A DNA stretch of 64,000 nt from an uncultured Comamonadaceae bacterium (GTDB lineage Bacteria; Bacteroidota; Bacteroidia; Flavobacteriales_D; Sanyastnellaceae), in the NCBI GenBank assembly GCA_964555295.1, contig CAZKRL010000003.1, positions 9,487 to 73,486 of the forward strand, given 5' to 3'. Made by a program: the position numbers and the translations under genes. Under the pieces are notes generated by a model. It searched no databases. It saw only the letters and a program-made list of their open reading frames with translations, and was not told the DNA's origin. This document shows positions 32,013 through 34,267 of the stretch, in pieces. Every line of letters begins with the position of its first letter. The stretch's first letter is position 1.

Positions 32013-32345
32013 TCAACGAATCAACGGCGATGAACGTGAGGTCAGCGCCATTTGCCAGGGGAGAATATTGACATCATGAATATGCAATGTTTCGTTTCCG
32101 GTATAAACGACTTCAAGACTGGCTTCAGATCGCAGTGCTTTCCAATAAGTGAGATGTTTCCAATAGTCAGAAGTAGCGGTGCTTCCCACTCTGATTTCGA
32201 TGGCTTTTACATGCCCGTCGAGCTCCTCAAGGAGGTCAATTTCACGACTGTTTTTTTCTCGCCAGAAATAAAACTGAGTAAAGCCACCCGTATGAAGGTT
32301 GTGTTTCCATTTATCTGATACAATCATGTTTTCAAAGAGGGCCAC
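32013..32345 (-). pseudogene. C-terminal remnant of a DUF4143-type AAA ATPase
   Basis: The ...ALFENMIVSDKWKH...FYFWREKNSREIDLL...AIEIRVGS... pattern matches the DUF4143 C-terminus. The sequence just upstream (to about 32450) continues the similarity only through a stop codon and a frame change. Confidence 0.6.
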
Positions 32346-32506
32346 TTTATTGCGGAGAGTTCAGAATTTTACTTTTTATGCTGCTGCTGATGTGGGAGTC
32401 TCATATGTGCTGCAGATACTTTTTCGGGTATTTACCAATGTCAAATTGAAGAAGGAGAATGCCTTCTAGAGTTTCTTCCCCGGCTGCGCTGCACTAAGCC
32501 GGCGCG

Positions 32507-32590
32507 ATGGAGAGTAGTGAAATAGTGAAAAGGTGAAGTGGTGAAATAGAAACTGCAGTGAATCACTCTCTCACCATTTCACCACGTCAC
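32507..32590. repeat. GTGAA-rich imperfect-palindrome repeat, copy A
   Basis: It is about 84% identical by eye over 76 nt to copy B. GTGAA words fall at 8-nt spacing (32517, 32525, 32533, 32541), and the complement TTCAC/GTCAC words lie on the right arm. It ends on the fic stop codon (32587-32589). Confidence 0.75.
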
Positions 32591-33645
32591 TTTTTTCCAA
32601 ACGACAAAGTGTACCAAGCTGTTCTTCCAGCCCCGCGTTGTTGGATAAATCCACGCTCCGATAAATTCCGAAAGTGTTGCTTCAACGTATTGCGATTAAT
32701 GCCGGTTAAAGTTGCGTATTCACCAATAGAAATGCGGCCATGGTGCTTGAGATGCTCGAGAATGCCCAACGAAATCGCCGGTAACAAAAGCGCAAGCGAT
32801 TGCTCTTGCTCAACCTTTTTTCGTAGCAAGTCCTTTTGTGCTTTCAAACTTCTTAGAAAATACACAAGCCATGGCTGCCAGTCGGGCGATTCTGTTCGGA
32901 TTGTTTCCTGGGTTTTACGAAGTGACAGATAATAACTTTCCTTGGATTGTTCAATGACGCTCTCCAACGAACTGTAGGGAACATAGTCATATCCGGCTTG
33001 CAATAAAATGAGTGTGCTCAATGCACGACTAAGCCGCCCGTTGCCATCTTGAAACGGATGGATTTCGAGAAACACCACTGTAAAAATTGCTGTGACAATA
33101 AGTGGATGTATATATTTCCTTGTGGTTTCTTCTTGTATCCATTGCACAAGATCATGCATGAGAAACGGGGTGTCGAACGGGGAGGCGGTTTGAAAAACAA
33201 TACCCAGCTGATTCCCATTTTCATCGAATGCCGCAACTGAGTTGGAGGTTGTTTTATAATTGCCACGATGCCATGCATCCTTTTCGCTATAGATCAATAA
33301 ATCCCTGTGGAGCTGTCGAATGTAACTTTCACTCAGGGGAATGTCGGGCCATTCATTGAAAATGGTCTCCATAACCTTGGAATACCCCGCTACCTCTTGC
33401 TCGTCGCGTGTGGAAAACGTTTGGATTTCGATGCGGCCGAGTAGGCGCTCAACTTCTTTATCTGATAATTTGCTTCCTTCGATACGTGTGGATGAACCGA
33501 TGCTTTCAATTGTCGCTATTTTCCGGAGCGCACGCAGACGCTCTGGCTCGAGCGTTCCCAGCGCGCGCCAGGCACCCTTGAACTCATCGATTTCACTGAT
33601 GAGGCGCAGAATGTCAGAAGTAATGACAAGGCTATCCGTCTTCAT
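32587..33645 (-). CDS. fic: Fic-family protein (class II, N-terminal inhibitory helix, C-terminal wHTH)
   Basis: The Fic motif HPFQDGNGRLSR is at 33025-33060. The inhibitory motif STRIEG ([ST]xxxE[GN]) is at 33475-33492. I chose the ATG at 33645; the track ORF starts at a TTG at 33669. Confidence 0.9.
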   Translation of the reverse strand: MKTDSLVITSDILRLISEIDEFKGAWRALGTLEPERLRALRKIATIESIGSSTRIEGSKLSDKEVERLLGRIEIQTFSTRDEQEVAGYSKVMETIFNEWPDIPLSESYIRQLHRDLLIYSEKDAWHRGNYKTTSNSVAAFDENGNQLGIVFQTASPFDTPFLMHDLVQWIQEETTRKYIHPLIVTAIFTVVFLEIHPFQDGNGRLSRALSTLILLQAGYDYVPYSSLESVIEQSKESYYLSLRKTQETIRTESPDWQPWLVYFLRSLKAQKDLLRKKVEQEQSLALLLPAISLGILEHLKHHGRISIGEYATLTGINRNTLKQHFRNLSERGFIQQRGAGRTAWYTLSFGKK

Positions 33646-33706
33646 AACGACACCCAAATATACACCCAATTACACCCGATTAGGATTGTAGTGAATAGGA
33701 TTGTAG
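33646..33706 (-). promoter_or_regulatory. fic upstream region with direct repeats and a TAnnTTTG box
   Basis: On the minus strand, GGGTGT occurs three times and CTACAATCCTA twice. TATATTTG (33655-33662) lies 10-17 nt before the ATG. Confidence 0.4.
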
Positions 33707-33781
33707 GATTTAGGGAATGGCGAAGTCGCTCCTTTTGTCAACTGAGCGGGTGCCCGGCCCATGTCATTATTTTGCCAAGCC

Positions 33782-33872
33782 ATGGAGAGTTGTGAATTAG
33801 TGAAATGGTGAATTACTGAAACGGAAGCTGTAGTGAAGACTCTCTCACCATTTCACGATTTCACCACTTCAC
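33782..33872. repeat. GTGAA-rich imperfect-palindrome repeat, copy B
   Basis: This is the homologue of copy A and carries one extra 8-nt GATTTCAC unit. A 12-bp perfect stem, GTGAAATGGTGA/TCACCATTTCAC (33800-33811 / 33845-33856), is extendable to about 20 bp. The repeat contains the stop codon (33869-33871) of the truncated ATPase fragment. Confidence 0.75.
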
Positions 33873-34267
33873 CCTACACTCAGCCGCAACGTCGCACCCA
33901 GCATAGCAATTCGTTCCGCCAGGCTCTGACCGATGGATTGTTGCAAGAGAAAATTGTTTGAACCTGTCAATATAAATAGGCCTGTATCATTAGAATTGTC
34001 GAGAATTTCTTGCAGGTAGGAAAACAATTCAGGGGCTTGTTGAATTTCATCGAGAATGGCGCCCTTGGGAAACTGCGCTAGAAATCCGCGCGGATCTGTT
34101 TGTGCCATGAGCCGAGTGTCAGGGTTCTCCAAGCTGGCATATTGCTTGCCCGGAAACACTTGTTTTGCCAGGGTAGTTTTGCCGGATTGGCGCGGTCCTG
34201 TAATGGCGACACTTTTGAATTGAGCAGCTAGCTTTTTAAGTCGCTCAGTAGTCTGTCTCTCAATCAT
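33869..34267 (-). pseudogene. N-terminal fragment of a DUF4143-type AAA ATPase (AAA_14-like)
   Basis: 132 codons with Walker A (ITGPRQSGKTTLAKQ) and Walker B-like (AILDEIQ). It is truncated where family members normally continue, with the stop lying inside repeat B. Confidence 0.65.

Follow-up and report, generated by a model that had tools for sequence, protein, structure and literature searches.

Here, we describe a pair of short hairpin-forming repeats, called copies A and B, that bracket a fic gene in a 64,000-nucleotide stretch of contig CAZKRL010000003.1 (assembly GCA_964555295.1). This whole stretch is referred to below as the window. The fic gene (32587..33645, minus strand) encodes 352 amino acids with a Fic domain and a C-terminal winged helix-turn-helix (wHTH), and because the catalytic HPFQDGNGRLSR and an N-terminal STRIEG inhibitory motif are both present, its product can be assigned to the SoFic-like class II of Fic proteins. 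Upstream of it lies a box (33646..33706, minus strand) in which three copies of GGGTGT (ACACCC on the plus strand, at 33650, 33662 and 33672) are arranged around TATATTTG and preceded by two copies of CTACAATCCTA. Copy B (33782..33872) and copy A (32507..32590), neither of which is assigned a strand, stand at the two ends of this arrangement. Outside them are two pieces of the same AAA_14/DUF4143 ATPase gene, an N-terminal fragment (33899..34267, minus strand; residues 1-123 of about 390) and a C-terminal fragment (32013..32348, minus strand; about residues 280-380).

Both copies are imperfect palindromes in which one arm is made of tandem 8-nt GTGAANNN units and the other of their complement. 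The left arm of A has four GTGAA units (32517-32545) whose GTGAA words start at 32517, 32525, 32533 and 32541, in strict 8-nt phase, and its right arm has four TCAC-type units (32562-32590). The left arm of B has four GTGAA-type units (33792-33820) and its right arm four TTCAC-type units (33844-33872). The original prediction, a note made from the letters of the window, had already described this spacing, and it is not a product of chance: a pattern of three GTGAA units has six matches across the window, where 0.01 would be expected. The two copies lie in the same orientation and are, as had been estimated by eye, about 84% identical, with blastn giving 84.2% identity over 76 nt (E=1e-6 against the whole genome). 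A repeat finder places them in direct families at 81-88% identity, namely D2 (32504-32562 and 33779-33837, 81% identity) and D1, which consists of the right arms. B had been thought to carry one extra 8-nt unit, and here the description needs correcting, as the difference in length is 7 nt. Since A and B have a non-repetitive loop and left end in common, we conclude that they derive from one another.

The hairpin arms are equally well supported. Internal inverted arms of 20 nt with 90% complementarity were located in A, and of 24 nt with 88% in B, both by the repeat finder. Folding as RNA, a check that had been proposed at the outset, gives energies of -30 to -37 kcal/mol on both strands of both copies, with z-scores of -3.2 to -4.2 against shuffled sequences. 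A and B therefore have the long-stem terminal inverted repeats seen in intervening sequence (IVS)-type elements, and they also consist of head-to-tail short units beyond chance, four to an arm, as do long simple-sequence repeats and short tandemly repeated repetitive (STRR) sequences. Rfam had no match in the window, and in eight related loci it returned only sub-threshold noise from eukaryotic miRNA hairpins.

Each copy also supplies a stop codon. On the minus strand, fic terminates as ...SFGKK-TGA at 32587-32589, and the open reading frame (ORF) upstream terminates as ...LSVG-TGA at 33869-33871; the two TGA codons lie in the first, outermost unit of A (GTGAC) and of B, respectively. The claim that the repeats end the preceding ORFs thus stands for both, while the identity given to the upstream ORF, a truncated ATPase, does not hold for its last nine codons. 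These encode GATLRLSVG (33872..33898, minus strand), a peptide identical to the C-terminal end of an XRE/HTH_3 protein whose gene stands ahead of fic at the related locus L165, and are left over from the donor locus. In its relatives, the Fic protein ends in WYTL directly before the stop, which is TAG in L162, another related locus, and TGA in L165. In the window, TCG replaces the ancestral stop (TAG in L162), and translation therefore runs five codons further, through SFGKK, to the first TGA of A. Because every unit contains a TGA and eight is not a multiple of three, the gene-facing arm provides stops in all three frames within 24 nt.

The XRE remnant is fused in frame to the ATPase N-terminal fragment, giving a chimeric ORF. 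As GATLRLSVG belongs to the XRE protein and not to the ATPase, the foreign segment can be delimited to 32349..33898 (minus strand), and the TGA in B is the native stop of the XRE gene. The segment is 1.55 kb long. It contains, in order, the tail of the XRE gene and B, then 90 nt of spacer, the promoter box and coding sequence of fic, and finally A followed by a tail of 158 nt (32349-32506). Full-length ATPase homologues of 387-397 amino acids align to both flanking ORFs, and residues 124-279 are absent from the window. The break point on the ATPase side is found 27 nt outside B, within the tail of the XRE gene and not in the hairpin; the nucleotide match to L165 at the XRE tail (84.6%) starts at 33902. 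The window and L162 run colinear, with 88.5% identity, from 33691 to 32571, a stretch that takes in the promoter box, fic and A's first arm, whereas the L162 housekeeping genes are only 72-74% identical to those of the window's own genome, G000 (2.82 Mb in 71 contigs, 96% complete). We read this difference as horizontal exchange between related lineages, with the hairpins carried along. The two hairpin copies are foreign, and these comparisons indicate that horizontal transfer and illegitimate recombination brought them in together with fic, in place of the middle part of the DUF4143 ATPase gene. The 158-nt tail after A and the 90-nt spacer had no match among the sequences compared. The end of the alanine racemase gene murF-alr offers one case of a filled versus an empty gene end, between different genera: the C-terminus is the same in L162 and G000, and an arm stands 5 nt past the stop in L162 only. 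No target-site duplication could be read from this pair.

Searches of G000 by regular expression, blastn-short, nhmmer --max and a periodic scan allowing one mismatch found no copies beyond A and B. BLAST of copy A against 60 relatives gave chance-level matches only, and the loop specific to A and B had 0 matches in a metagenome scan. According to the original prediction, a lack of further copies, together with no conservation of structure, would point to chance low-complexity similarity. The lack of copies is real inside this genome, but the copies present in other genomes overturn the conclusion.

One genome per species was scanned with a pattern in which three GTGAA units are followed, after 20-50 nt, by two TTCAC units. 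The pattern occurs on at least 119 contigs, from more than 100 species, against about 0.1 expected by chance. Among the matches listed, record titles name Acidobacteriota, Beta-, Gamma- and Alphaproteobacteria, Bacteroidota, Chloroflexota, Planctomycetota, Spirochaetes, Actinomycetota and others. Spirosoma, Larkinella and Hymenobacter (L085, L088, L109, L117, L122) are among the cultured carriers. The arrays have 3-13 units per arm and loops of 5-68 nt. GTGAA is exact in 372 of 462 units, and the three bases between these words are rich in purines and particular to each genome (AAA, GGG, CGG, TGA). Spacer triplets recur as the reverse complement in the partner arm in 58% of cases, compared with 11.6% for permuted pairs (maximum 20.8% in 500 permutations), and this co-variation shows that the arms are constrained to pair; folds of such hairpins reach z-scores of -4 to -14.5. 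Distribution is uneven: 21 of 401 sampled Bacteroidota genomes have at least one match, four of them in high copy, and five carrier genomes contain 15-150 three-unit matches each, with a reversed-pattern control yielding 0 to 2 in four of the five. G000 holds only its two copies, and in other genomes the loci number in the tens; G742 and G409 are examples of high-copy genomes. The array-carrying genomes also contain many periodic palindromes of other kinds, with units of 7-10 nt. Full-text searches of the literature found no description of GTGAA-octamer palindromes. Resemblances of GTGAA to the ParB parS half-site (GTGAAAC), to matS and to Shine-Dalgarno-like sequences were considered and dropped, since the three bases after GTGAA vary freely.

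The position of these elements relative to genes is highly constrained. Counting gene ends no more than 40 nt away gives 91 3' ends against 24 5' ends (p=2e-10), and the 3'-end distances cluster between -20 and +13. It had been suggested that other copies be checked for abutting stop codons, and they do so: 36 ORFs take their TGA from within the array, and these stops fall at -4, -12 or -20, one position for each frame. Flanking gene pairs are tandem in 31 cases, convergent in 18 and divergent in 4. It had also been suggested to check whether further copies flank accessory ORFs. The neighbouring genes are ordinary (87 Pfam families among 74 proteins), and copies lie against purA, aroC, frr, tmk, hisF, tatA and genes of that kind. 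The class is one of sporadic, sometimes high-copy palindromes with tandem-repeat arms, which occupy the short space that separates a stop codon from the gene behind it.

A link to the PF05635 family provides a further clue to the nature of the class. In the closest relatives of this locus, L162 and L165, the immediate neighbour of fic is a PF05635 gene that has a GTGAA arm on one side and a TTCAC arm on the other, and the stop of this PF05635 gene falls inside an arm. A sample of 32 PF05635 loci was taken from six genomes (the five array-rich ones and G000), with 30 shuffles per test. Flanking inverted repeats scored above all 30 shuffles at 27 of these loci, many of them with arms of 7-8-nt periodicity, and the arms are of the GTGAA type at four (L295, L298, L303 and L307). 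Typically, the upstream arm begins at the stop of the preceding gene and the downstream arm ends at the start of the following gene. Inverted repeats also flank 9 of 12 PF13366 loci. Full-length forms of the class enclose a small PF05635 gene, whose product is a four-helix bundle of the 23S rRNA IVS or bAvd-like kind, and A and B are at most gene-less derivatives of an IVS-type element. G000 has two PF05635 genes, C39:25748-26059 and C64:5494-5802 (L314 and L315), and ahead of the C64 gene stands a (GCTGCGT)n array of 7-mers; the element class is therefore present in this genome too, with arms of other types.

The explanation that we favour, and consider probable rather than secure, is that A and B are gene-less, stop-codon-rich members of an IVS-like class of palindromes with tandem-repeat arms, imported together with fic, which form a 3' RNA stem and owe their presence to selfish spread. 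The anatomy and distribution of the elements, their placement at gene ends, the tie to PF05635 and the history of transfer are shown by the sequence data, and the role in RNA and the manner of spread are inferred. As RNA, each copy would fold into a 25-30-bp imperfect stem directly past a stop codon. We infer that this stem most likely serves as a 3'-end or processing hairpin, which would act as a barrier to 3' exonucleases and as an insulator between neighbouring genes. By analogy to the stems of 23S rRNA intervening sequences, it may also be a substrate for RNase III. The XRE-derived tail terminates natively in the first unit of B, and fic, having lost its own stop, now does so in the first unit of A. 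Persistence and spread would most likely follow the manner of a miniature inverted-repeat transposable element, with arms growing and shrinking by slippage.

Several results count against this explanation. No enzyme for mobility was identified, and the window segment, including the 158-nt tail after A, contains no PF05635 gene or remnant of one. GC content is uninformative, giving no sign of foreign origin. The PF05635 proteins with GTGAA-type arms do not cluster across phyla, nor is there any clustering by arm type, so that a single coherent mobile lineage is not established. In one Cytophagales genome, the majority of arrays are not hairpins but lone arms that share a conserved outer end, AATTTTGAATGA, so pairing cannot be the whole story.

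A more far-reaching form of our explanation is put forward tentatively, and we regard it as doubtful in its entirety. The hairpins would be non-autonomous copies of a pan-bacterial, IVS-like mobile family whose autonomous form consists of an arm, a PF05635 gene and the complementary arm. Insertion would take place exactly between a stop and the next gene and would be harmless through the stops in all frames, the stem would be processed from transcripts, and the element would have, in the bAvd-like PF05635 pentamer, a factor of its own for handling nucleic acids. Such a family would constitute an undescribed class present in many phyla.

Among the known systems closest to the class is the 23S rRNA IVS with an S23p ORF, an element that has inverted repeats at its borders and is a substrate of RNase III (PMC4990558). 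In Leptospira, Coxiella and Brucella, it has long terminal inverted repeats that form a stem enclosing a small PF05635 four-helix-bundle gene, and it resembles our class in its sporadic distribution and horizontal transfer as well. The window copies differ in being gene-less, in lying between protein genes and not in rRNA helices, and in having arms of tandem 8-nt repeats, every unit of which contains a stop codon. Tandem heptamer arrays are another point of comparison. TAACTGA arrays in Beggiatoaceae, Cyanobacteria and Bacteroidetes abut starts in one orientation and stops in the other (PMC4679880), and GGGAATC arrays are known from Xanthomonas and Nostoc (PMC4692102). These arrays, including the cyanobacterial STRR, are likewise intergenic with units that are not multiples of three, and their polarity rule matches the Cytophagales genome, where single arms read in the GTGAA sense when they follow a stop and in the TTCAC sense when they closely precede a start, as they do 8 nt ahead of rpmA. 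Most of them, however, are single direct arrays of 7-mers, whereas the GTGAA elements are 8-mers arranged as a palindrome. What is new here is the pan-phylum GTGAA unit, the all-frame stop property that fic makes use of, and the hitch-hiking of two copies into a genome that is otherwise free of them.

One alternative is that the elements are plain transcription terminators, bidirectional at convergent genes, and only incidentally built from repeats. This would agree with their position immediately past stops, with the enrichment of convergent and depletion of divergent gene pairs, and with the stability of the hairpins, but we think it unlikely. Of 93 copies that face a gene, just 14 have a run of at least four T behind them, and A and B do not belong to these: there is no T-run after either copy on the side of the coding (minus) strand, the succession of hairpin and U-tract that marks an intrinsic (Rho-independent) terminator is lacking in both, and a terminator scan calls neither. 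Many copies sit in operon-like tandem pairs, with few nucleotides between the stop and the next start, and single arms are found just 5' of start codons, as at rpmA in L280.

We hold it to be unlikely to the same degree that the elements are putative binding arrays for a protein recognizing GTGAA (or UUCAC) repeated in 8-nt phase on DNA or RNA, for which the PF05635 pentamer or a global regulator would be candidates. The conservation of GTGAA beside a 3-nt spacer that is free to vary between genomes could be understood in this way, as could the fixed polarity of single arms relative to genes. There is also a precedent in Geobacter metallireducens, where classes 2 and 3 are multi-copy paired sites of 3-5 tandem 7-9-nt repeats on opposite strands with variable spacing, interpreted as binding sites of global regulators (Aklujkar et al. 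2009, PMC2700814). Their architecture is the same as that of the GTGAA palindromes, but the units, TCTCCGTS[Y] and MTYCTGA, differ from GTGAA, and no link to stop codons or to PF05635 is described there. An 8-bp phase, moreover, would place successive sites on different faces of B-DNA, and the same architecture is produced in the same genomes by many other units of 7-10 nt. The wHTH of Fic, for its part, is excluded as a general partner. As a user of the hairpins it was rejected on finding that 80 distant fic loci and G015 have no arrays, yet keep the GGGTGT x3 box.

A third possibility is that the palindromes are neutral by-products of mutation, with slippage expanding an octamer next to a hairpin and template switching making the palindrome symmetrical, in which case they would have neither function nor mobility. 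Unit number does vary between orthologous hairpins (4+4 in the window, 7+5 in L162 and 5+7 in L165), and simple-sequence repeats with 5-11-nt units are abundant in some genomes, as Mrazek 2007 is cited to say in PMC4679880. We nonetheless rate this as quite improbable. The loop and left end common to A and B, and likewise those common to the two inverted copies around the fic gene of L163, indicate that copies derive from one another, and mutation alone would hardly account for the same GTGAA unit in many phyla, the tight placement at coding ends or the arms that bracket PF05635 genes.

It is very improbable that A and B are attC-like recombination sites bounding a fic gene cassette, one of the readings that the original prediction had offered. 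The layout of an ORF followed by an imperfect palindrome, repeated, is indeed that of a cassette array, since integron attC sites are imperfect palindromes of 60-140 nt behind cassette ORFs. The relatives have cassette-like cargo with arms in between (a PIN toxin-antitoxin pair, fic and a small four-helix-bundle gene), and the gene contexts around fic are mosaic. However, the defining recombinase, the integron integrase, is absent from G000: the best match to TIGR02249 reaches 112.5 bits against a cut-off of 265 and is generically Xer-like, as in all 14 control genomes. The core sites RYYYAAC/GTTRRRY are missing at the ends of A and B, and the GTGAA...TTCAC polarity is the same in both orientations, opposite to that of attC. 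The break point on the ATPase side is outside B and within the XRE gene tail, not in the hairpin; the same elements flank housekeeping genes, and fic has its own conserved upstream box.

Of the readings first offered, a likeness to repetitive extragenic palindromic (REP) elements came closest, in that dispersed hairpins abut stops in many genomes. The REP sequences of Enterobacteria and Pseudomonas, along with the bacterial interspersed mosaic elements (BIMEs) and REP doublets (REPINs) that they form, are likewise short palindromes outside genes that are scattered over the genome, differ from one genome to another and stand mainly at gene 3' ends. When near a stop codon, REPs reportedly influence the stability and translation of mRNA (Liang, Rudd and Deutscher 2015). 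That A and B are themselves REP/REPIN elements mobilized by a REP-associated tyrosine transposase (RAYT, of the Y1 HUH type) is nevertheless extremely unlikely despite the shared traits of dispersed, palindromic and extragenic copies at 3' ends in genome-specific variants, because G000 has no match to PF01797 (Y1_Tnp), GTGAA arrays occur within 1.5 kb at 0 of 12 Y1_Tnp loci in the five array-rich genomes, the GTAG or CGTC tag is lacking, and the class has periodic 8-mer arms, all-frame stops and PF05635 in place of the transposase.

If the class is what it appears to be, a large share of post-gene hairpins in Bacteroidota, Acidobacteriota, Chloroflexota and Betaproteobacteria would be IVS-like selfish copies and not terminators. 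This would affect terminator prediction, operon models and the annotation of gene ends, given that 36 of 110 abutting ORFs borrow their stop from the element. It would also provide a concrete role to test for the very common and unexplained PF05635 '23S rRNA IVS protein' genes. A stop in every frame within 24 nt would amount to a natural fail-safe of translation, and the fic gene of the window is seen using one. For this genome, the elements would date and delimit the horizontal acquisition of fic that destroyed the DUF4143 ATPase gene.

The GGGTGT x3 box accompanies fic in all relatives, including the hairpin-free ones, from Bacteroidota to Betaproteobacteria, and is the better candidate operator for the Fic wHTH than the hairpins are. 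The box, with TATATTTG as a -7-like motif, lies 4-30 nt 5' of the fic start; it was also seen in L020, L163 and L179-L183, taking the form TGGATGT x3 in the betaproteobacterial L182. Fic homologues of about 68% identity are abundant in Betaproteobacteria (Ferrovum, Gallionella, Sideroxyarcus), from which we conclude that fic is highly mobile. Arrays are present at 0 of 80 more distant metagenome fic loci (64-68% identity, 315 kb), and we therefore consider that the arrays belong to the host lineage and not to fic.

Some additional observations were made at related loci. Upstream of the hairpin at the 92%-identical fic locus is a DUF6364-PIN toxin-antitoxin module (L162:164-831), which is itself preceded by a TTCAC arm at 89-117, so that three small accessory units stand in a row with arms between them. 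In L163 (330-480 and 1650-1750) and also in L164, an 85%-identical fic allele lies between two inverted copies of another periodic palindrome, with TCATTCT / AGAATGA units and a common loop; the hairpin position on each side of fic is retained, and the sequence family has been swapped. Palindromes with tandem 7-nt arms were seen in the same genomes as the GTGAA arrays, at L047:2292-2374, L044:5995-6145, L072:6067-6180 and L096:7911-8000. Their units are GTGGAGA, GGGGACT (the complement of cyanobacterial STRR1), ATTTCGG and TTAATGG, several of which have no stop codon. Single TTCACTCA arrays in L280:276-304 (G410), and also in L282 and L283, end with TTCAAAATT 6-12 nt before starts, including that of ribosomal protein L27, and this start-codon placement mirrors the one reported for TAACTGA heptamers. 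In G000, AGGAT-type words occur at 8-nt phase in five arrays of at least three units, the most among permutations of the GTGAA letters. Finally, L003 (G014:C3:372457-375508), from a relative, has four weak GTGAA-arm matches about 130 nt apart (373698, 373828, 373957 and 374103), a spacing that suggests a longer tandem repeat.

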